Assembly (NCBI GenBank): GCA_019309545.1
Contig: JAFDGA010000023.1
Location: 1,320-65,319, forward strand
DNA: 64,000 nucleotides
Source: Deltaproteobacteria bacterium
Lineage (GTDB): Bacteria > Desulfobacterota > Desulfobaccia > Desulfobaccales > Desulfobaccaceae
Reading direction: 5' to 3'
The notes below the pieces were generated by a model that was not told where the DNA came from, ran no database searches, and was given only the letters and a program-made list of their open reading frames with translations. A program made the translations under genes and the position numbers. This document shows, one piece after another, positions 5 through 33,181 of the stretch (its first letter is position 1; each line of letters opens with the position of its first letter).

Positions 5-1186
5 ATGCCGACTCGAACCCCGATGGAAGTGTCGATCGCGGTGGCCAAAGCCGTGCAGCAAGCCGATGTCGATGTCATTGCGGCTTACCCCATTACTCCG
101 CAGACCCATATCGTGGAGCACTTGTCCGAACTGGTGGCTAATGGTGAGCTACAGGCCAACTTTATGAATGTCGAATCGGAACATTCAGCCATCAGCGCCA
201 TGGTCGGGGCTGCAGCCGCCGGGGCCAGCACCTTTACCGCCACCAGTTCCCAGGGGTTGGCGCTGATGCACGAAATTCTCTTCATTGCCTCCAGCCTGCG
301 GTTGCCTATCGTCATGGTGGTCGCCAACCGCGCCTTATCGGGGCCGATCAGCATCTGGAACGATCACAGCGATATCATGGCGGAACGGGACATCGGCTGG
401 ATTCAGGTCTTTTGTGAAAACGGTCAAGAGGCCTATGACTCTATCCTGCACGCCTTTCGGGTAGTGCGCGATCCCCATGTGCTGTTACCTATGGTGGTTA
501 ATATTGATGGCTTTAATCTGACCCATGTCATCGAACCGATCTATCTCTTTGACCAAGAAGAACTGGGTGATTATCTGCCGGAACACCGTCAGCAATTGAA
601 ACTGGATATCGACCATCCGGTGACTATGGGGCCGGTAGGCATCCCCGAGGTCTATACCGAAGCCAAAAAGCAGGTAGAAGACGCCTTGGTCAACTCGAAA
701 CAGACCATCCTGGCTGCCTGGCAGGAATTTGCCCGCCGTTTTGGCCGGACTTATGCTCCGATTGAAGCCTATCGGGTGGAAGGTGCCAAGATTCTGCTGA
801 TGACCATGGGGGTCATCAGCCGCACCGCCATGGGCGCGGTGGATCGTCTGCGGGAGAGGGGGAAGGCAGTGGGCCTGATCCGCTGCCGGCTGTGGCGGCC
901 GTTTCCGTTGCCGGAGTTTCGGGAGGCAGTGCGCCAGGCCAGCATTATTGCCGTGGTCGATCGCCATATTTCCCTGGGAGCCCACTCCGGGCCGGTGTGT
1001 CAGGAAGTGCGGTCGGCGCTCTATACCTTGCCGAACCGCCCCCAGGTATTTGGTTTTGTGCTGGGTTTAGGGGGCCGCGATGTTACCGTGCACGACTTCT
1101 TTGAGATCGTCGAACTGTCCGAACAATACGCCAGCCAAGGCCCTCCAGCCTCGGAATACACCCACATCGGCCTGAGGGAAGTATAA
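5..1186 (+). CDS. 2-oxoacid:ferredoxin oxidoreductase, alpha subunit (PorA/VorA-type)
   Basis: 393-aa ORF with conserved OFOR alpha-subunit blocks ([32 protein letters not shown]). Its TAA stop overlaps the ATG of the beta-subunit ORF (TAATG, 1184-1188). Substrate specificity is not decidable from sequence alone. Confidence 0.85.
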
Positions 1187-19462: not shown

Positions 19463-22156
19463 TTAGCCTTTTTGAATCTGCACGGCGCAGACCTTGTATT
19501 CCGGGATTTTGGCCACGGGGTCGAAGGCGGCGATGGTGAGTTTGTTGGCCGCGGCCTCGCCATAGTGGAAGGGCACGAAGATGGTGCCGGGAATGGCCTT
19601 GGCCGAGATCTGGGCTTTGGCGGTGATTTCGCCGCGGCGGGAGCGCACCTTGACTCGGTCGCCCTCGCCAATGCCATAGCGGGCGGCATCTTCCGCAGCC
19701 AGCTCCACGAAACACTCCGGGGCCTTTTCCACCAGGCCCGCGGCCCGCCGGCTCATGGTGCCGGTATGATACTGGTACAGCACCCGGCCGGTGGTCAGGG
19801 TCAAAGGATATTCCGCATCAGGCAGCTCGGCCGGTTCGCGATGCTCAATGGCAAAGAACTGGCCGAGGCCGCGGGCGAATTTATCCTTATGGAGATATTT
19901 GGTGCCGGGATGATCGGTGGTGGGGCAGGGCCATTGCAGGCCGCCCTCGGTTTCCAGGCGGGCATAGGTGATGCCGGCATAGGAGGGGGTCACCTGGCGC
20001 AGCTCGTTAAAGATGGCCTCGGCATTGGCATAGTCCATGTCATACCCCAGCCGCCGGGACAGGTCGCAGATAATCTGCCAATCCGGACGCGACTGGCCCA
20101 CCAGGGGAACCGCCCGGCGGATCAGGGCCACCCGGCGCTCGGTATTGCTAAAAGTGCCCTCTTTTTCGGCAAACGAGGCCGCCGGCAACACCACATCGGC
20201 CAACTGCGCGGTCTCGGTCAGAAAGATGTCCTGCACCACCAGAAAATCCAGTTTCTTTAAAGCCGCGACCGCATGGTCGGAGTCGGGATCGGAAATTACC
20301 GGGTTCTCCCCCATGATATACAGGGCTTTGAGCTTGCCTTCGGGTATGGCGGGCAGCATGTCGGTCATGGTCATCCCCACATAATCCGGCAGGCCGGTAA
20401 CCCCCCAAGCATCCTCCATCTTCTTCCGGTTGGCCGGGTCGGTGACCGCCTGGTAGCCGGAGAAGACATTGGGCAGGCCGCCCATGTCGCAGGCCCCCTG
20501 GACATTGTTCTGGCCCCGCAGCGGATTGACGCCGCCGCCTTCAATACCGACATTGCCGCAGAGCATGGCCAGATTGGCCAGGGATTTGACGTTGTCGGTG
20601 CCGACGGTGTGCTGGGTGATGCCCATGGTATAGACGATGGCTGCGGCCGGGGCAGTGGCATAAAGCCGCGCTACCCGGCGCAACTGGTCGGCGGGGACGC
20701 CGCTGATCTGTTCGACATATTCCGGGGTGTATTTGGCCACCGTGGCTTGCAGGGCCTCAAAGCCCTCGGTGCGGGCGGCAATGTAGTCCTTGGCGTGGAG
20801 ATTTTCTTGAATGATGATATTCATCAGGCCATTGATCACCGCGATATCGGTGCCGGGGCGGTGGCGTACCCAGATATTGGCATGCCGTACCAAGTCGATG
20901 CGCCGCGGATCAATGACGATCAAGGTTTTATGCTTCAGGCGGGCTGCCCGTTTGATGCGGGCGGCGATCACCGGATGATTCTCTGTGGTGTTGGAGCCGA
21001 TCACCAGGATACAGTCGGTGTCTTCCAGCTCAGCAATGGAGTTGGTCATGGCTCCGGAGCCAAAGGCGGCGGCCAGACCGGCCACCGTGGAGCTGTGTCA
21101 GAGACGGGCGCAGTGATCGACGTGGTTGGTGCCGATCACCGCCCGCATGAATTTCTGAAACAGGTAGTTTTCTTCGTTGGTGACCCGGGCCGAACACCAG
21201 CCGCCGATCTTGTCGGCCCCGTCTTTTTCCTTGATTTTCTTGAGGCGTTGGGCCACCCGGTCCAGGGCCTCATCCCAACTGGCCTCCCGGAAGCTACCGT
21301 TCTCTTTGATCAACGGCGTGGTGAGGCGGTCGGGATGGTGCACAAAGCCCCAGCCAAAGCGGCCTTTGACGCACAGCCGGCCCTCGTTGGGAACCTCATC
21401 AGCGCCAGTCACCTTGACTATGCGACCGTCCTTGACCTGCAGGTCGATCTGGCAGCCTACCCCGCAATAAGGGCAGGTGGACCGGACCTTAGTACGCTCC
21501 CAGGGCCGCCCCTGAAAGCGGGCCGCCTTGTCCAGCAAGGCCCCTACCGGACAGGCCTGCACGCACTCCCCGCAAAAGACGCAATCGGCGTCGATATAAG
21601 GATAATCTCCGCGGGCGACGATCTTGTTGTGCGAGCCGCGGTAGCCGATGTCGATGGCCAGATTGACCTGGCGCTCGCAACAGGCCCGCACGCAACGGCC
21701 GCACATAACGCACTTGGAAAAATCCCGCACGATCATACTATTATTGTCTTCATAATAATACGCCGTGTCGGGGGGGTTGGCAAAGCTGGGGGTCGGCACC
21801 TGGTAGCGATAGGCCAAGGCCTGCAATTCGCATTCCCCATTGGCTTCACAGATCAGGCAGTTATGATTGCCGGAGGCCAGCAGCAGTTCGATGACCATCT
21901 TGCGGGCCGCGACCACCCGTTCCGACTCGGTCTGAACCACCATGTTGGCGGCGGCCTGGGTGGAGCACGCCGGCAGCAGGGTGCGGGCCCCCTCGACTTC
22001 GACTACGCAGACCCGGCAGGAGCCGGTGGGGGTGGTGCCTTTCAGGTAACACAGGGTGGGGATGTCAATTCCCGCCCCCCGGGCCGCCTCCAGGATGGTC
22101 TGGCCCGGCGTGAATTCTACGGTTTGTCCATTTATACTTAGAGTTGAATTGGCCAT
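19463..22156 (-). CDS. fdhA: formate dehydrogenase alpha subunit, selenocysteine-containing (NuoG-like Fe-S N-terminus plus molybdopterin domain)
   Basis: ORFs 21098-22156 and 19463-21085 are in the same frame and joined by TGA at 21098-21100. The junction reads [28 protein letters not shown], the conserved Sec/Cys active-site context of FDH-H-type enzymes. N-terminus carries 2Fe-2S and 4Fe-4S motifs. Confidence 0.9.
21068..21086 (-). promoter_or_regulatory. SECIS hairpin for Sec insertion in fdhA
   Basis: On the mRNA strand, GGUGGCC-GGUCU-GGCCGCC forms a 7-bp stem with a GGUCU loop. It starts 11 nt after the UGA, which is the spacing and loop type of bacterial fdh SECIS elements. Confidence 0.6.
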
Positions 22157-23631: not shown

Positions 23632-24879
23632 TCAGAGCCGCTGGTCGCGGCTGGCGTCGTAAAATATATTGTCTGGCTCCTGCTGGCCCAGCACCCGGCG
23701 GTAGGCCTCCACCATAAAGCCGGCGATGATCTGGTTGGTCATGATTACCGCGGGATCGGGACGGTACTGGCAAGAGGCCCGGGGGTGCGAGTGGGGGGCC
23801 GTCCGGCGCTGGCGCACGATCTCCGCCAACCCCAGCAGTTCCGCCGGGGTCCGGGTATGGCGGGCCGGATCATAAACCACCACCTGACCGGCGGCGACAT
23901 CGCTGCCGCCGCTGATCAGGATTTTCTGGTGAGCTTTACATAATTCACTCAGAATGATCCTAGTCTCAAAATTATCGACCCCGTCAAAAATTATCTGGTA
24001 CGGGGAGATATCGGTTTCCTGGTCTAAGGCGACCGGGAGGAACCGGCTATTGAGGCCGAACAACCGGTTCAGGCGGGCCGACAGAGCTTGGGCCTTGTTT
24101 TTCCCCAGGCCCTGGGAGAGAAACACCTGGCGGTTTAGATTGGTCATCTCCACCACATCCGCATCCATAAAGGTGAGGTTCGTCGCGCCCAGCAAGGCCA
24201 GCCCCAAGCCGATAAAATTGCCTAAAGCCCCGGCCCCCACCACACAGAGGGGGGGATGGCAGCGCGGGAGCGGCAGTGGCGGTCGCGCATAGGCAATCAC
24301 CTCTGGCGATACCGGCTGCCCCATGAGGATATTCTTGGTCTCTTCCAAGGCCAGCCCGGCAATGATGATGTTTAGCACGTCGTCATCAAAAGGCGCGGCG
24401 GGCAGGTTGCGGGGGGACAGCAACTGCTCCAGTTCCTGCCATTCCCGCCCCTTCAGATAAGTAAAGACCTTGAAGCCTTGCTGATCAGCCTGCTGGTAAG
24501 GGAAGCCGCGGATCACCGGCCGGGGGGCGCGGCCGTCTTGAGCCAGCAATAATTTGTTGGCCAACCCGTACTGACTGAGATCCACCAGCACCTGGCAACC
24601 AGTAAATAGGTCCTCCAGCACCGGGTGGGTGAAGTATCCGGGCAGATGGACCAGGCGCAGGTCAGGATTGACTTGGCGCCCAATGTCGATCAGGTGCGGC
24701 TCCAGACGGGGGGCGATGACTACTAGTTGATTCAGCCCCAGGGCCGCGGCCGACATCACGTACAGCGAGGCCAGGCGATCATCGTCGCCGACCACGCCGA
24801 TCCGGGCCGCCGCAAGTACCGCTTGATTCCAACCCGGGATGCGCAGTTGTCGATCCAGTCTTACCGACGTCGGCCGCAT
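23632..24879 (-). CDS. E1-like (ThiF/MoeB/UBA family) adenylyltransferase with tandem degenerate + active adenylation domains
   Basis: 415 aa. Residues ~205-415 carry the intact motifs VVGAGALGNFIGLGL, TNLNRQ and DNFETR. Residues ~8-200 repeat the E1 N-terminal pattern (RQLRIPGWNQAVLAAARIGVVG), but the glycine loop is replaced by GDDDRLAS. Its ATG overlaps the JAB stop (TAATG). Confidence 0.8.
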   Translation of the reverse strand: MRPTSVRLDRQLRIPGWNQAVLAAARIGVVGDDDRLASLYVMSAAALGLNQLVVIAPRLEPHLIDIGRQVNPDLRLVHLPGYFTHPVLEDLFTGCQVLVDLSQYGLANKLLLAQDGRAPRPVIRGFPYQQADQQGFKVFTYLKGREWQELEQLLSPRNLPAAPFDDDVLNIIIAGLALEETKNILMGQPVSPEVIAYARPPLPLPRCHPPLCVVGAGALGNFIGLGLALLGATNLTFMDADVVEMTNLNRQVFLSQGLGKNKAQALSARLNRLFGLNSRFLPVALDQETDISPYQIIFDGVDNFETRIILSELCKAHQKILISGGSDVAAGQVVVYDPARHTRTPAELLGLAEIVRQRRTAPHSHPRASCQYRPDPAVIMTNQIIAGFMVEAYRRVLGQQEPDNIFYDASRDQRL

Positions 24880-25676
24880 TACAATATTTCCAGCTTTTCC
24901 AGCTTATAGGTGATGGGATTGATTTTTTCCTTGACTTCCCCGGCCAAAGCGGCCAGTTCAACCGGCGTCAGGGACTGGCCATTGTCCACCAGGACGATCT
25001 CGGCGTTTTGGTGGCTCACCGTGGTCTGGCCCGAGAGGATGGCCCGCCGCTTGTAATAGATCTGCTGCTGATGCCAGCCCTCGTCGCCGATGACGATGCC
25101 GTAACTGAACCCACCGTAAATGGTTTCCAGGATCCGGGCTTGGGCCACCGGGACATCAGTAATCAGCGAGACGCTGCCTTGGGCTAAATCGGGCTCGGCG
25201 AACCGGTCGGCCACCAACAGGGTCAAGTCCTTGATCAAAATTTCTTTCTTGGCGATGGGCTTCTTAGAGAGGGCGGTGACATAATCGAGCACAGTGAGGT
25301 GATTCTGCTCATCAATGGCGGAGAAAGCATGGAACTCGAGTTCGCCATGCGAGTGAATCCAGCCGTTGATAAAGCGGTCGGCGGCCAGGGTTTCCTGAAA
25401 AGCGGCGATTTTCTCCGGGTCGATGCTGGTGTACTCCAAGACATTCTGTTCATTTTTGGGCAAGCCGATATCGATAATGAGCTCCGGGTTATCCCGCCGG
25501 GCCAGGGTATAGCCGTACCATTCATAACTGCTGTGGTGGATGGCTCCCACCAATTCGTTGATCTTAAAGGCCTTGGAGCGGGCGTAAGAGGTCATAGGAA
25601 TTTCCTGGGGCAAGGAGTCCAGGATGATCTCTTGCGCCACTGGGCGTTGCAGTTGTGACAGGCTTTTAAATCTCAA
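24879..25676 (-). CDS. JAB/JAMM (MPN+) metallopeptidase
   Basis: 265 aa. WIHSHGELEFHAFSAID (H-x-H-x8-S-x2-D) with a Glu (SSYEWYG) about 56 residues upstream fits the JAMM zinc site. The TTG start overlaps the AAA+ stop (TTGA); an alternative ATG is at 25595. The C-terminal ~125 aa are unassigned. Confidence 0.7.
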   Translation of the reverse strand: MRFKSLSQLQRPVAQEIILDSLPQEIPMTSYARSKAFKINELVGAIHHSSYEWYGYTLARRDNPELIIDIGLPKNEQNVLEYTSIDPEKIAAFQETLAADRFINGWIHSHGELEFHAFSAIDEQNHLTVLDYVTALSKKPIAKKEILIKDLTLLVADRFAEPDLAQGSVSLITDVPVAQARILETIYGGFSYGIVIGDEGWHQQQIYYKRRAILSGQTTVSHQNAEIVLVDNGQSLTPVELAALAGEVKEKINPITYKLEKLEIL

Positions 25677-26776
25677 TTTAATTTCATCCTGACATATCGC
25701 TCATCCACTACCAGCTTGCCAGTATGGCTGCCGGGCAGCCGGAACATATCCTCAAATAACACCCGGTGGATGATACTGATCAGGCCGCGAGCCCCGGTGC
25801 GTTCTTGTTTGGCCCGCTGGGCGATCACCTTCAAGGCATCGTCGACAAAGGTCAGCTCGATGCCCCAGGCCTTGAGGTCGTTGATATAGGCGCGCAGCGG
25901 ACTGTCTTCGCTTCTAATCATGATTTCCTGGAGTTCTTGCGTGGTTAATAAGTCATAGACAATTCTCACCGGAAAGCGGCCCATGAGTTGTCGTTCCATG
26001 CCAAATACTACCAGGTCCTCGGTCAGGAGATGATCCTGCCAATTGCCGCCGAAGCCATGGCGCTCCATCCGTTTTTCGACAATGGCGTCGAGCTTCTCGT
26101 AAACCCCGCCGGCAATGAAAAGCACGTGTTTGGTGGACAGGGTGATTCTTTCCTTGCCCATCTCAATGGTATTTTCCACTCCCTCCACCAGCTTTAAGAG
26201 GCCTTTCTGAACGCCGCGGCCCGATACATCCCGGTAGGCCACGTTCTCAGTGGCGATTTTGTCAACCTCATCGAGATAGACTATGCCCATCTGGGCCAAA
26301 TGAGGGTTGCCGGCGGCGGCGACCAGTAGGTCGGCCAGGATATCGCTGGTGTTCTGTCCGACATAGCCGGTTTCACTGAATTTGGTTAAATCTTCGACCA
26401 CAAAGGGAACCCCCACCAGTCCCGAGGCGGTTTCGCAGGTGTAAGTTTTGCCGCAGCCGGTGGGCCCGATCATTAACAGGTTGGCCTTGGGAGTTCGGGT
26501 GTGGCGCAGGGCGGCGCCGATGTCACCGCCGTCTTCGGCCAACATCTCTTTGAGGGCGTTGCCTAAGCGTTTATAGTGGAAGGCAATGGCGGTGGCGATA
26601 ATCTTCTTGCCTTTTTCCTGGCCGATCACAAACCGATCTAAATGCGCCTTAAAATCAGCCGGGGTTTTATCAAATTCGACGACCTGTTGAATGGCCTCGA
26701 GAGTTTGAGCTTCTCGTTGTTGCTCAATTTTCTCTTTGATCCGCCGCCGGCTTTCCTCTGATAATCTATCAAACAT
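25673..26776 (-). CDS. ClpX-family AAA+ unfoldase paralogue lacking the N-terminal zinc-binding domain
   Basis: 367 aa, collinear with the ClpX AAA+ module. Motifs: FVIGQEKGKK, Walker A GPTGCGKT, pore-1 loop TGYVGQN, Walker B IVYLDEVDK, DVSGRGVQKGLLKLVEG, sensor region TGARGL. There is no C4 zinc finger and no RKH loop. The IGF-loop position is shortened to RHGFGGN. Confidence 0.85.
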   Translation of the reverse strand: MFDRLSEESRRRIKEKIEQQREAQTLEAIQQVVEFDKTPADFKAHLDRFVIGQEKGKKIIATAIAFHYKRLGNALKEMLAEDGGDIGAALRHTRTPKANLLMIGPTGCGKTYTCETASGLVGVPFVVEDLTKFSETGYVGQNTSDILADLLVAAAGNPHLAQMGIVYLDEVDKIATENVAYRDVSGRGVQKGLLKLVEGVENTIEMGKERITLSTKHVLFIAGGVYEKLDAIVEKRMERHGFGGNWQDHLLTEDLVVFGMERQLMGRFPVRIVYDLLTTQELQEIMIRSEDSPLRAYINDLKAWGIELTFVDDALKVIAQRAKQERTGARGLISIIHRVLFEDMFRLPGSHTGKLVVDERYVRMKLN

Positions 26777-26846
26777 AGTTCACCAAATATTGTTTTAGCT
26801 TTGTGTTAAATATTCGTTTATCCGGGATGACCGGCCTTTTCTGGCG

Positions 26847-27278
26847 TTAGGCTCGGCCTGGTCCCCGGAGTCGCTTCCGCTGCCACAGGGTGAGAAAATG
26901 GAAGCGGCCCAGTAGTTCCGGGTTAAGAGCCGGATTTAATTTAAACAGCGGTCCACACAGCAGAATCTCGGCTGGGGAGTGCACGAACTGCAGGTAAGGA
27001 TTGTTGACTGCCGCGATAATTGCCATGGTCACTTGATATTCCGGGGCAGTACCCAGAGCAAACAGCGGAGGTTGGAAAAAAGCTTTGTTTGGCACCGGCT
27101 CGTGTGCAAAGATTTCCACCGGCCACTGCTCTAAGGGCTGATCGAGGAGGGCGACAAAGCTGTTCCCCAAGCCATAGGCCTTTACTAAAGTGCATATTCT
27201 GGTAAAAAGGCTGCATTGAAAAGGCGGTTTGTTTTTTCTCTGCGCCCTTTCCCCTCTTATTTGCTGCAATAGGGCCAT
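26847..27278 (-). CDS. hypothetical protein (operon-embedded, 143 aa)
   Basis: Its ATG lies 1 nt after the stop of the upstream 384-aa ORF (TGAtATG). I recognise no motif. Coding is inferred from the tight coupling within the cassette. Confidence 0.5.
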   Translation of the reverse strand: MALLQQIRGERAQRKNKPPFQCSLFTRICTLVKAYGLGNSFVALLDQPLEQWPVEIFAHEPVPNKAFFQPPLFALGTAPEYQVTMAIIAAVNNPYLQFVHSPAEILLCGPLFKLNPALNPELLGRFHFLTLWQRKRLRGPGRA

Positions 27279-27279
27279 A

Positions 27280-28434
27280 TCAGGTGTATCTGTTTTTTAC
27301 CTCGACCTGCCCGGAGACAATTTTGGGATGATCGGCGGAAATCCGGTAATCATCGAAATCGACGGTCCGAACATGCTGAGTTATGCGATCCAGACTGTGA
27401 TAACCGTTGCGGCGGCGACTGTTGTAACCATAATACAGGGCGTTAATGCCTTCCTCCAGGGCCTGGATGACATTTTCGGCAGTAAAGTTTTTGGTTGTCT
27501 CGTAATCGCCGGTGCAGATTTTCTGCCAGGAAGCGTAGCCGAACAGGAAGGGGTGTTTATATCTTTCCAGCACCAGGGGCTGTAGACCGGCCAGAGTGGA
27601 AACCGCCACCCGACAGTCGGGGAATAGATAAAAGCGACCATAGTAATCTTTGAGGACATATTCGCCGATGTGTTTATAGATGATGTATTCGTTGCTGAAG
27701 CCGGTTTTAAAAAACCCGAAGCCATCCACCTCTAATGAACCTTGCCGGGCTAGGGCGAGGAGAATTGGGAGATAAGTACTTTGGGTCCGGACCAGCTGTT
27801 GTCGTTCCGCCAGCGCCTGTCGGAGACGATCTCTTTCCTGATCAATTATATATTTTTCCAAAGCCAGGCGAAACCACTCGTACAACTGTGGGGCCAACAT
27901 CAAACCTTCTAAAGGTTCGGGTCTGGTTGCCGCAGTGGCTTCAAGCCTTGTCACTAAATTTTGCAGTAATTCTAAATCCAGCAGCTTATCTACCTTTTGG
28001 TCATCGATTTTGGAGATTTCCAGCTTCTCCCGCAGCAAATCCATTATTTCTGTTTCGGTAAGTGGTATTCTCTTTAAACCGGCTTTTCTTCTCAAAAAGT
28101 GGGGCATTACCTCGAAAATTATGGTTCTGACCTGACTATCGATAGGTAGATCATTGATCTCCGGATCATGGCCAAATTTCTGTAAACCGGCCCGCCGCAG
28201 TTGCTGATAGGAGGTGGGGTGGATTTTTTCGTAGTTTTCCACCAGGGAGGCCAAACTCAAGGTTTTGACAAACAGCTTTCCCGCCCTGGCAATTAGGGGG
28301 CTACCAGGGGGTGGCGTGAACTGACCATCCGAGTTCTGAACTTCGCAAGCTATTTCCGGATCAAACAGTAGTGGTAGATAGATAAAGCCGCCTTCTATGA
28401 CAATCTCAAGATTTGATTCCAGCAACTGTTGCAT
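27280..28434 (-). CDS. hypothetical protein with candidate E2-like (UBC-fold-like) C-terminal region
   Basis: 384 aa. Residues ~235-345 read as strand-rich segments (FYLFPDCRVAVS, PLVLERY), then HPF (294-296), then Cys307 (QKICTG; codon 27514-27516) 10 residues later, then a helix (TAENVIQALEEGINALYYG). This is the order seen in E2 catalytic cores. It is pattern-level evidence only. Confidence 0.45.
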   Translation of the reverse strand: MQQLLESNLEIVIEGGFIYLPLLFDPEIACEVQNSDGQFTPPPGSPLIARAGKLFVKTLSLASLVENYEKIHPTSYQQLRRAGLQKFGHDPEINDLPIDSQVRTIIFEVMPHFLRRKAGLKRIPLTETEIMDLLREKLEISKIDDQKVDKLLDLELLQNLVTRLEATAATRPEPLEGLMLAPQLYEWFRLALEKYIIDQERDRLRQALAERQQLVRTQSTYLPILLALARQGSLEVDGFGFFKTGFSNEYIIYKHIGEYVLKDYYGRFYLFPDCRVAVSTLAGLQPLVLERYKHPFLFGYASWQKICTGDYETTKNFTAENVIQALEEGINALYYGYNSRRRNGYHSLDRITQHVRTVDFDDYRISADHPKIVSGQVEVKNRYT

Positions 28435-28478
28435 TACTGACTGCTCCAGTAATGGCAGACAATAATCATAGTTTAAGG

Positions 28479-29291
28479 CTAGTTTAAAGTTAACCTCATC
28501 ATATAGAAACTATCATTATTTTCATGATCGAGGGAAAGCACCTTCATAATTTGAAAGCCCAGGCGCTCATAGAGTTTTACTGCGCCGATCTTAACCAGCT
28601 CAACGTCTAATTCTACATATTTAACCTTTTTTTGCTTGAAGTTAGCGATACAGTTTTCAATTAACGCCGTCGCGATGCCCTTCCCTCGATGCTCGGGATG
28701 CACTGCGATCCTCAAGATCACCGCTCGGTGGCCTAGTTCACAGATACAGCCGATCAGGTAGCCTAAAATTTCTGTTGTTTCAAATATATAAAATAAGTGG
28801 TTCAGGGCCTGGCGAAAATTATGGTATTCCCAGAAGTCCAGGAAGGATAGCCGATCGATTTCCAGGACTTTATCCAGATCGCTCTCCGTAGCCATGCGGA
28901 TGTAATTACTGTAATTGCGATAAGGTCTACCTCCTTCTTGAGGTTTGATGGCCCGCACCGGCACGTAGAGATATTGTTCTCCGACTTCAGTTTCCTGCAC
29001 TTCGGCATAATCTCTAGCCTTGCCGTCAACCTCTCGACCTCTGCAGAGCAACTTGCCACCGGCCAACTGTCTTTTAATGTCTTCAAGGACTTGTTGTTCT
29101 TCGATGCTCCAATTGGTTTTACTTAAGGTTTCTTCACACAGCTTCCGGAGCGGTTTACCCTCGTAACTGCCGGGCTCGAAAATCTCGATTAACCCTTCTC
29201 CGGCCTGTCCCGGCATGATTTCGATCACCAATGATTGCGGCTGTGCCCGTTCAGCCGGTTGCTCAGCTTTCTTTGATTCTATTTCGGTCAT
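28479..29291 (-). CDS. fusion protein: N-terminal ubiquitin-like (beta-grasp-like) module ending in Gly-Gly + C-terminal RimI-like GNAT acetyltransferase
   Basis: 270 aa. Residues ~135-270 are a clear GNAT (ILRIAVHPEHRGKGIATALIE, VELDVELVKIGAVKLYERLGF). Residues ~20-121 show a Ub-like pattern (LVIEIMPG..GLIEIFEPG, long helix, KLLCRGREVDGKARDYAEVQ, YLYVPVRAIKPQEGG) with GG at residues 120-121 (28929-28934). AAGAGG RBS. Confidence 0.6.
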   Translation of the reverse strand: MTEIESKKAEQPAERAQPQSLVIEIMPGQAGEGLIEIFEPGSYEGKPLRKLCEETLSKTNWSIEEQQVLEDIKRQLAGGKLLCRGREVDGKARDYAEVQETEVGEQYLYVPVRAIKPQEGGRPYRNYSNYIRMATESDLDKVLEIDRLSFLDFWEYHNFRQALNHLFYIFETTEILGYLIGCICELGHRAVILRIAVHPEHRGKGIATALIENCIANFKQKKVKYVELDVELVKIGAVKLYERLGFQIMKVLSLDHENNDSFYMMRLTLN

Positions 29292-32308: not shown

Positions 32309-33181
32309 TTAGGCTTTCCGCCGACAACGCATTTCAATATAGTTATCATTCAGATAACGGGCTAAGGTGAAGTCTCGGGCGGCCTCTTCCTGGTTAATGA
32401 TAATGCCCTGGGAGGTCAACTCCTTGGTGATCAGAGCCGGGTCATGTCCGGCAAACAGCCGGGTGATGACCTGATGCATGGTCCCGACCGAAACATTGCC
32501 TCGGGGCGGCAACTCCCGGGTAACGTCGTTCTTGATGCGGTGAAACAGGAAATCCACCAGGTAATCCCCGGCCGGACTGCTGAACCGTACTACCTTCTCT
32601 TCTTCAATCCCCTCGTTTAGGATCTCCTGCGGCACGTAGCGATCCAGGATCCAAGCGGTTAAATTCAGGTAAGAAGAAAGCAGGATGGCAACCATATCAT
32701 AATGATCTAGGGGGCGTTGTTCATCCTGTTCGACCCGGCTGGTGCCAAAGCGCCGAAAGCGGTATTCCTGAGCATTTTCATCCCGACTGACCAATAAATC
32801 AATCCCCACCGTGCCTATGGAGCAGGACAGATTAATGGTGTGATCAGCCGCAACCGGAACGCCATAGCGGGATAATTTGGTTAGGATCAGACCATGGCGA
32901 TGCCCTAACAGCACCCGTCGGATCAGGGCTTGCATGATATAGGGGGTAACATTATATTTGGCGGATAAGGCTAAAGAAGTCAACTGCTGAACCGTCATCT
33001 GAATAAAATAATCTGGGGGATAGAGCTCGAAATTTAGGGTTTCAAACTCCCCGGGTTTGCGACTATACCGTCTCCAGATCTCTTGCCAGCGATGATCCTT
33101 AACCAGTTCCAAGACTTCGATCAGGTCATAAGAATCCAGTTCCCGATTTTCCGCTTCTTCCACCAGACATTTGGCAGCCAT
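32309..33181 (-). CDS. hypothetical protein
   Basis: 290-aa ORF; no motif recognised. Confidence 0.45.
   Translation of the reverse strand: MAAKCLVEEAENRELDSYDLIEVLELVKDHRWQEIWRRYSRKPGEFETLNFELYPPDYFIQMTVQQLTSLALSAKYNVTPYIMQALIRRVLLGHRHGLILTKLSRYGVPVAADHTINLSCSIGTVGIDLLVSRDENAQEYRFRRFGTSRVEQDEQRPLDHYDMVAILLSSYLNLTAWILDRYVPQEILNEGIEEEKVVRFSSPAGDYLVDFLFHRIKNDVTRELPPRGNVSVGTMHQVITRLFAGHDPALITKELTSQGIIINQEEAARDFTLARYLNDNYIEMRCRRKA

Follow-up and report, generated by a model that had tools for sequence, protein, structure and literature searches.

A candidate E2-like protein with an invariant His-Pro...Cys motif in a bacterial operon encoding a putative modifier, an E1-like enzyme, a JAB peptidase and a ClpX-like ATPase

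Described ubiquitination-like systems and the Desulfobacterota locus

Bacterial operons that combine E1, E2 and JAB genes were sorted into types 6a to 6e by Iyer et al. in 2006, in a text from which the terms ClpX and AAA are absent (PMC1779556), and the operons treated in more recent papers from the Corbett laboratory, which are those of CBASS, Bil I/II and Bub I/II, include no ATPase in the component lists of the parts cited here (PMC11601596, PMC11601603). As far as these parts go, CBASS Cap2/3, Bil and Bub, the bacterial ubiquitination-like systems described, are modules of antiphage defence or stress without a described AAA+ unfoldase. Here, we report on a cassette in a 64,000-nucleotide stretch of a Deltaproteobacteria bacterium (Desulfobacterota, assembly GCA_019309545.1, contig JAFDGA010000023.1, positions 1,320 to 65,319; hereafter the window, meaning this whole stretch), in which an orphan protein of 384 amino acids (aa), here called E2L, is encoded beside a candidate ubiquitin-like modifier (Ubl), an E1-like enzyme, a JAB peptidase and a ClpX-like ATPase. 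Full-text literature searching found no description of such a Ubl/E1/JAB/ClpX-like operon. From the sequence and the predicted structure, the C-terminal domain of E2L (residues ~232 to 384) is probably a highly divergent E2-like (UBC-like) carrier, with Cys307 as the putative active-site cysteine; E2L would thus stand for an E2-like lineage that is both new and very divergent, in an operon whose architecture is also new. E2-like function is the reading that fits the evidence best, whereas the fold and profile comparisons fall short of establishing membership of the UBC superfamily.

Like the ISG15-like conjugation operon Bil (BilABCD), the cassette encodes a Ubl whose C-terminus is, here presumably, processed, an E2 candidate, a JAB/JAMM peptidase and an E1, and neither encodes an E3; in the parts of the Bil papers cited here, the E2 is proposed to choose its targets itself (PMC11601596, PMC11601603). 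The cassette differs from Bil in that there is no match to the PADLOC BilB model and only one of 0.0016 to BilD, on the E1 adenylation core, in that its E1 has no inserted Cys domain (the BilD type is IAD-AAD-CYS), in the additional ClpX-like ATPase and 143-aa orphan (p143), and in its hosts, which are Thermodesulfobacteriota, Methylomirabilota and Binatia. The genes flanking the cassette in the window look housekeeping rather than defence-related, as judged from Pfam annotations alone. The E2 domains of CBASS Cap2 and Bub BubB resemble E2L in being diverged, in having no two C-terminal helices and in being recognisable mainly by structure. The Cap2 domain, however, is fused to E1 and accompanied by a CD-NTase and a JAB (Cap3), whereas E2L is encoded on its own, behind a long N-terminal extension, and no CD-NTase is present in its operon; BubB uses Ser and oxyester chemistry, the Bub E1 and E2 having no catalytic Cys, and comes with the DUF6527 serine protease BubE, in contrast to the invariant Cys of E2L and the conserved Cys370 of the E1 here, and the cassette orphans match neither DUF6527 nor any other Pfam family, with no Ubl-E2 or E2-E1 fusion present. 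E2L is matched by neither the PADLOC nor the Pfam models. A small, C-terminally activated tag encoded with an AAA+ unfoldase also recalls ubiquitin-Cdc48/proteasome, archaeal SAMP-Cdc48/PAN and actinobacterial Pup-Mpa, but the unfoldase here is ClpX-like, has no zinc-binding domain and is not conserved at its IGF position.

The His-Pro...Cys domain of E2L

The initial annotation of the window had placed a His-Pro-Phe at residues 294 to 296 and a Cys at 307 of E2L, positions that translation reproduces exactly (RYKHPFLFGYASWQKICTGD is the translation of 27505-27564 on the minus strand), and had likened them to the HPN motif and catalytic cysteine of E2s; both the His and the Cys prove essentially invariant. 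Among 229 relatives covering the motif region, some only ~25% identical to the window protein, Tyr292 and His294 are each kept in 228 and Pro295 and Cys307 in all 229, and position 296 is occupied by Phe in 193 relatives and by Leu in 34, and never by Asn. A full-length alignment of 41 sequences leaves His294, Pro295 and Cys307 invariant, with Cys274 and His346 among further invariant positions, and in a diverse domain alignment of 51 sequences (mean column identity 34%; 25 to 62% identity to the window protein) the sole invariant columns are Tyr292, His294, Pro295 and Cys307. The HP...Cys motif is not chance, and the persistence of its cysteine down to ~25% identity, with other Cys and His residues drifting, is typical of a catalytic residue and suggests that role for Cys307. 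A Cys2His2 metal site formed by Cys274, His294, Cys307 and His346 was considered and set aside: Cys274 is kept in 205 of the 229 relatives (it is Ala in distant members) and His346 in 181, so neither is universal and a four-ligand site is unlikely.

The same counts bear on the possibility that E2L has no catalytic activity and serves as a scaffold or adaptor (for example as a receptor of the modifier or as a ClpX-like adaptor, of UEV or RWD type), in which Cys307 and His294 would be structural. Bacteria have catalytically inactive E2-fold proteins of these types, which bind Ub-like moieties (PMC1779556), the UEV Mms2 stands at rank 23 among the weak fold matches of the E2L domain model in PDB, and in the main family the E2L gene always neighbours those of p143 and the ATPase. 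Yet inactive E2-fold proteins are characteristically without the Cys (PMC1779556), which in E2L is absolutely invariant across the relatives while other Cys and His drift, and in distant relatives the domain persists with neither a ClpX-like gene nor p143 beside it; we consider a purely structural role improbable and the assignment of Cys307 as a carrier cysteine the better account.

The family to which E2L belongs is unannotated, being absent from Pfam (2025), NCBIfam 20 and PADLOC 2.0; its homologues at E<=1e-3 form 693 clusters in a 90%-identity collection, every one named 'hypothetical', and the family comprises 202 clusters at 50% identity. In an exhaustive profile search, distant relatives of 430 to 590 aa, which have no Pfam domains, align at profile positions ~190 to 387 only, their HP...Cys domain sitting behind unrelated N-terminal sequence. 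The part of E2L that is thus exchanged corresponds to the N-terminal ~230 residues, for which the initial annotation had suggested a possible substrate- or AAA+-binding role.

An AlphaFold2 model of the full-length protein (predicted local distance difference test, pLDDT, 82.8) passes from a small N-terminal beta/alpha module through a helical region and a 50-residue helix (181-231) to the C-terminal domain, and a second AlphaFold2 model of residues 200 to 384, built on the diverse alignment (pLDDT 90; predicted template modelling score, pTM, 0.79), contains the same elements. The domain is predicted to comprise three hairpins made up of six short strands (233-279), then a long loop with the His-Pro and the Cys, a helix at 319-335 (TAENVIQALEEGINALYYG, present in both models) and an ordered C-terminal coil that bears the Arg-rich motif YGYxSRRRNGYHSLD, with a short strand beside Cys307 in addition to the six-strand set. 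In both models Cys307 lies between strand 275-279 and helix 319-335. The order of elements expected of a UBC fold, as the initial annotation had read it from the sequence (long helix, beta-meander, HP loop, Cys, helix), is borne out by the models, except that its 'four strand-like segments' are six short strands. Canonical UBC E2s (UBE2D2/UbcH5, Ubc13 and Ubc9; Pfam UQ_con) likewise have an N-terminal helix, an antiparallel beta-meander, a His-Pro loop, a Cys and a crossover-type helix, and YKHPFLxxHxxGQxICL...FTAxNVIxALEEG of E2L can be set beside YHPNIxxxGxICLDIL...WSPALTIxxVLLSI of E2s. The UBC features present in E2L and its locus are the Cys that follows the last core strand and precedes the crossover helix, the His-Pro upstream of it, and the association with an E1 and a Ubl.

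UBC or UEV chains account for ~38 of the top 50 PDB matches of the domain model in Foldseek, and for 14 of the top 50 of the full-length model, and there is no protease or transglutaminase among the PDB matches of the domain model. The family profile was also compared by hhalign, in local mode, with an alignment of seven E2s (UBE2D2, UBE2I, UBE2N, UBE2L3, UBE2M, UBE2K and Rad6), whose sequences were entered by hand, align cleanly with one another and form a narrow eukaryotic sample. The register was identical in every run: GEYVLKDYYGRFYLFPDCRVAV / FYLFPDCRVAV falls on the E2 beta3-beta4 hairpin, KHPF on YHPN and hence HPF on HPN, QKIC on GSIC (ICx on ICL) with Cys307 on the catalytic Cys, FTAENVIQALEEG on WSPALT...alpha2 helix, and FTAENVIQALEEGIN on WSPALTISKVLLSI in the alpha2 helix. 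The real score of 18.0 compares with 11.9 +/- 2.0 for 200 column-permuted E2 decoys, one of which reaches 18.0, giving an empirical p of ~0.01 for a single pre-specified comparison; the E2 signal in the profiles is genuine, if modest.

Several results weigh against an E2 assignment. E2L has no Pfam, NCBIfam, PADLOC or PDB sequence match; no member of its family is matched by the UQ_con, Prok-E2, BilB or Cap2 profiles; a Pfam scan at E<=10 returned nothing for E2L, its domain or any of the 51 diverse members, so that no UBC-clan profile (UQ_con, Prok-E2_A-E, UEV or RWD) is matched significantly; and a profile search of PDB sequences with the domain gave chance matches only. hhalign's own P-value is 0.06 to 0.12, with or without secondary structure, which barely alters the scores. 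Foldseek against PDB yielded nothing significant with either model (best E 0.35, prob 0.1-0.25, template modelling score 0.26-0.36, root mean square deviation, rmsd, 6.5-9 A over 100-135 columns), and, because E2 structures resemble one another, the E2 matches are not independent and together amount to one weak family-level match. Relative to canonical E2s, the domain has six strands instead of four, the Arg-rich coil replaces the absent helices alpha3 and alpha4, ~230 extra residues stand ahead of it, the Asn of HPN is replaced by Phe or Leu, and the His-Cys spacing is 13 rather than 10; a sequence-profile match and the HPN Asn are the UBC features that E2L does not have. The beta-grasp fold of the modifier is, moreover, one that we infer. 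For scale, BubB, a divergent bacterial E2 whose structure was determined experimentally, can be superposed on UBE2D2 with 3.8 A over 104 C-alpha atoms (PMC11601596).

Direct assignment of E2L to a family was tried and given up, as Pfam, NCBIfam, PADLOC and PDB sequence searches with the protein, its two halves and the 51 domain members gave no E2 or other family. The predicted fold does not point away from UBC, its best PDB matches being mostly UBC E2s, but the match lies below every significance threshold. What the initial annotation had proposed, a divergent E2 core in the C-terminal third of the protein, survives in qualified form: the invariant motif, the order of elements, the E2-dominated fold matches and the operon context speak for it, whereas the missing significance of fold and profile matches, the missing HPN Asn and the two extra strands do not.

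In BFVD, the best Foldseek matches of the domain model (27283-27837) are uncharacterised proteins of 373 to 435 aa from crAss-like and podovirus metagenomic phages (prob 0.85-0.97, E 0.015-0.07, rmsd 3.8-5.6 A over 108-138 columns), which outscore every PDB match, and a giant-virus E2 appears only at rank 34. A viral origin of E2L was considered and dropped, with no relatives found in GenBank phages or IMG/VR.

E2L might instead be another Cys-dependent enzyme of the same pathway, such as an E3-like ligase acting by transthiolation, a peptidase or deconjugase of Cys/His type, or an enzyme resembling transglutaminases, with a His294-Cys307 dyad, in which case the E1 alone would conjugate the modifier. 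Conjugation by an E1 only is known from archaeal SAMP/UbaA and from Thermus TtuB/TtuC. Any Cys enzyme of the pathway would be consistent with the invariance of the His and Cys and with the tight link to the operon, no significant similarity to E2s is seen by sequence or fold, and the top BFVD matches are uncharacterised phage proteins rather than E2s. Set against this, processing and deconjugation are already provided for by a JAMM peptidase whose motif is intact, E2s dominate the Foldseek matches while proteases and transglutaminases do not occur there, and the register of the E2 alignment reaches into the flanking strands and helix. The His and Cys share a single loop, at a distance of 13 residues, an arrangement unlike that of papain-like and caspase-like dyads. 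We regard another Cys enzyme as unlikely, and an E2-like carrier as the more probable identity of the domain.

Operon context and a possible tagging pathway

The cassette consists of six tightly packed or overlapping minus-strand genes within 23632-29291 (Table 1). With its GG-ended modifier, its JAMM peptidase and a ThiF-type E1 whose crossover-loop Cys is conserved, and in the company of no other conserved-Cys candidate, the cassette calls for an E2: the other cassette proteins have no conserved Cys apart from Cys370 of the E1 and the Walker-A Cys108 of the ATPase.

Table 1. Genes of the cassette and features of E2L, in window coordinates.
Feature	Positions	Strand	Basis or remarks
Candidate ubiquitin-like modifier, residues 1-121 of a 270-aa open reading frame (ORF), ending ...VRAIKPQEGG	28929..29291	minus	Conserved GG end
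RimI-like GNAT acetyltransferase domain, directly after the modifier Gly-Gly	28479..28928	minus	Pfam Acetyltransf_1 6.7e-18; NCBIfam rimI 1.2e-16, below cutoff
E2L, 384-aa orphan	27280..28434	minus	ORF; target protein
Parts of E2L: N-terminal beta/alpha module and helical region, residues 1-180; long helix, 181-231; C-terminal HP...Cys domain, 232-384			
Candidate E2-like C-terminal domain, residues 232-384	27283..27741	minus	Domain model; Foldseek; only part common to distant relatives
His294-Pro295-Phe296	27547..27555	minus	E2 HPN-motif position; aligned with HPN of seven E2s (hhalign)
Cys307, candidate catalytic (thioester) Cys	27514..27516	minus	13 residues past His294; aligned with E2 catalytic Cys (hhalign)
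p143, 143-aa orphan adjoining E2L	26847..27278	minus	Family searches null; in ~80 loci
ClpX-like AAA+ ATPase without N-terminal zinc-binding domain	25673..26776	minus	NCBIfam ClpX 8.4e-80, below cutoff; Pfam AAA_2
JAB/JAMM metallopeptidase, 265 aa, candidate modifier-processing/deconjugating enzyme	24879..25676	minus	Weak Prok-JAB 0.0043
ThiF-type E1-like adenylating enzyme, 415 aa; active domain 212-402, Cys370	23632..24879	minus	Pfam ThiF 1.3e-27

Scanning one genome per GTDB species yielded 100 relatives of E2L, for which 80 loci were retrieved, and iterated ORF searches were run in 89 loci. The hosts are Thermodesulfobacteriota (Desulfobacterales, Syntrophobacterales and Desulfobacca), Methylomirabilota and Binatia, with a single isolate among them, Desulfoferrobacter suflitae DRH4. 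Most of the 89 loci have the co-directional order [E1] modifier-E2L-p143-ClpX-like-JAB [E1], the E1 standing at either end, and the exceptions are mostly contig ends.

The modifier's RAIKPQEGG is nearly invariant (~80 loci) and is followed by 0 to 48 unrelated, variable residues, a place taken in the lineage of the window by a GNAT domain of 151 aa; a GG end that stays constant while the tails vary is what marks a precursor to be trimmed to its Gly-Gly. Neither profile searching of PDB nor Pfam gave a match for the modifier, and its identification as a recognisable ubiquitin or ThiS was dropped. The fusion of modifier and GNAT (28479-29291) was seen in six loci only, all of the window's lineage (also L001-L003 and L010-L012), and a separate GNAT gene stands between JAB and E1 in Methylomirabilota-type loci (L022 and L047) and in one locus of Thermodesulfobacteriota (L076); being fused in one lineage and separate elsewhere, the GNAT is a recurrent accessory of the operon.

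The JAB protein carries the motif GWIHSHG...FS..D, in which His108 and His110 are 100% conserved and Ser119 and Asp122 are conserved as well, and it has no conserved Cys; its counterparts at the orthologous position in distant operons match Prok-JAB at 1e-6 to 4e-9. In the E1, Cys370 is 98% conserved, within RASCQYRPDPAVIMTNQ, at what we take to be the crossover-loop Cys site of ThiF and UBA5. The general rule on the crossover-loop Cys of E1s is drawn from the part of the Bil and Bub literature cited here (PMC11601596). The PADLOC Cap2 'E1-E2' models match residues 211-337 of the E1 only, with model positions ~373-505, that is, their E1 half. The N-terminal half of the protein had been considered as an inactive adenylation domain, an impression from the motif RLDRQLRIxGW...IGVVGD only, and neither a BLASTP comparison with the active half nor scanning with Pfam found a match.

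GG-ended small proteins, tails removed by a JAB enzyme and adjoining ThiF/MoeB genes are typical of CysO-Mec+ and QbsE-QbsD, and the cassette, too, pairs a GG-ended small protein with a JAB and a ThiF-like enzyme. It might on that account be a sulfur-carrier or biosynthetic system of ThiS/MoaD/CysO/QbsE type, in which the JAB would trim the carrier, the ThiF-like enzyme would thiocarboxylate it and Cys307 would act as a persulfide relay or acceptor. A GG-ended protein with a JAB-removed tail beside ThiF/MoeB does resemble those operon types, which are given in PMC1779556, and the best NCBIfam matches of the E1 are ThiF and MoeB, all far below cutoff. A sulfur carrier nevertheless seems very doubtful here: the operon conserves no rhodanese, no cysteine desulfurase and no biosynthetic partner such as a synthase for thiazole, molybdopterin or cysteine, known sulfur-carrier pathways have no place for a ClpX-like unfoldase or for a 384-aa protein whose N-terminus varies between lineages, and the modifier, at ~120 aa, is bigger than ThiS or MoaD. 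The gene content is better accounted for by conjugation of the modifier through an E2-like E2L.

The ClpX-like ATPase is matched by the NCBIfam ClpX model from positions 37 to 401, i.e., starting after the zinc-binding domain. Its GYVG and Walker motifs are conserved, as is the Walker-A Cys108, and at the ClpP-docking IGF position it has HGF, a tripeptide not conserved in orthologues; going by these motifs, it may work without ClpP. The orphan p143 is always encoded between the E2L gene and the ATPase in the main family, with conserved motifs that include NPYLxFxxSPxEILL and HFxTL. It was tried as the real E2, being about E2-sized, and turned down, as it has no family match in Pfam, NCBIfam or PADLOC and no conserved Cys (its Cys108 is kept in only 55%); it might at most be a Ser-based E2 as in Bub.

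The observations themselves establish the motif and its invariance, the order of the predicted secondary-structure elements, the conservation of the operon, the GG end followed by variable tails, and the conserved catalytic motifs of E1 and JAMM. On these we propose the following pathway, drawn in all its steps from homology and operon logic. The ~120-aa modifier would start as a precursor in which a variable tail (here the GNAT domain) follows ...QEGG, and the JAMM peptidase would trim this tail to expose the Gly-Gly. The ThiF-type E1 would adenylate the C-terminal Gly and probably take the modifier onto Cys370, from where it would be handed to Cys307 of E2L, where the invariant Tyr-x-His-Pro loop would shape the active site in the manner of HPN in E2s. 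The large, lineage-variable N-terminal region of E2L could select the target or a partner; as a selector of targets it would make E2L an E2/E3 hybrid, as proposed for Bil E2s. Tagged proteins would then go to the ClpX-like unfoldase, with p143 possibly as adaptor, and the JAMM peptidase could remove the tag; this coupling of tagging to unfolding is suggested by the operon. On this basis, we tentatively suggest that the six genes may form a chromosomal, apparently housekeeping tagging system, consisting of modifier, E1 and E2/E3 hybrid, whose targets would be unfolded by a dedicated stand-alone ClpX-like ATPase, an analogue of ubiquitin-Cdc48/proteasome targeting that uses an unrecognised E2 lineage.

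If Cys307 is a true E2 active site, E2L represents a very divergent E2 lineage missed by Pfam, NCBIfam and PADLOC, encoded in a widespread operon (~100 GTDB species representatives, with one cultured host) that links Ubl conjugation to a ClpX-like machine, and provides a new outgroup for reconstructing the evolution of the E2 fold and the HPN motif. The operon also makes it testable whether bacteria outside the Pup system route proteins to unfoldases by ubiquitin-like tags.

Distant loci and neighbouring genes

Six contigs (L007-L009 and L090-L092) carry distant relatives that have only the HP...Cys domain in common with E2L. On all five of those with an upstream gene, that gene ends in QEGG, QQGG or EEGG plus a short tail, and the downstream gene is a Prok-JAB on three (followed on one by ThiF), an AAA+ on one and without assigned identity on two. 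These gene sets define the conserved core as modifier, HP...Cys protein, JAB and E1, which is the gene set of Bil operons with E2L in the E2 slot. One of the contigs (L091, 6621-7850) has a distant variant operon of modifier, 463-aa E2-like protein, 387-aa JAB and ThiF, in which the next gene, at the place of the main-family ATPase and p143, encodes a 409-aa protein with no Pfam match.

Two further loci, from two distant lineages (L004, 1-6800, and L006, 9200-15116), lie beside a common gene block (two CoA-transferases, several small orphans and an MBL-fold/TPR protein). L006, which is one contig with L018, has E2-like and JAB-like genes only, with no modifier, E1 or ATPase within 7 to 10 kilobases.

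Elsewhere in the window, a formate-dehydrogenase-like molybdopterin oxidoreductase (19463-22156, minus strand) is annotated in two ORFs, split by a single in-frame TGA at 21095-21097 in the context ...HCARL-TGA-HSSTVAGL; the TGA very probably encodes selenocysteine and does not mark a break in the gene. Upstream of the cassette, at a distance of a few genes, a 290-aa ORF at 32309-33181 (minus strand), probably unrelated to it, has at the syntenic position in Desulfobacca-like loci (L001-L003) a 290-aa gene without a Pfam match.

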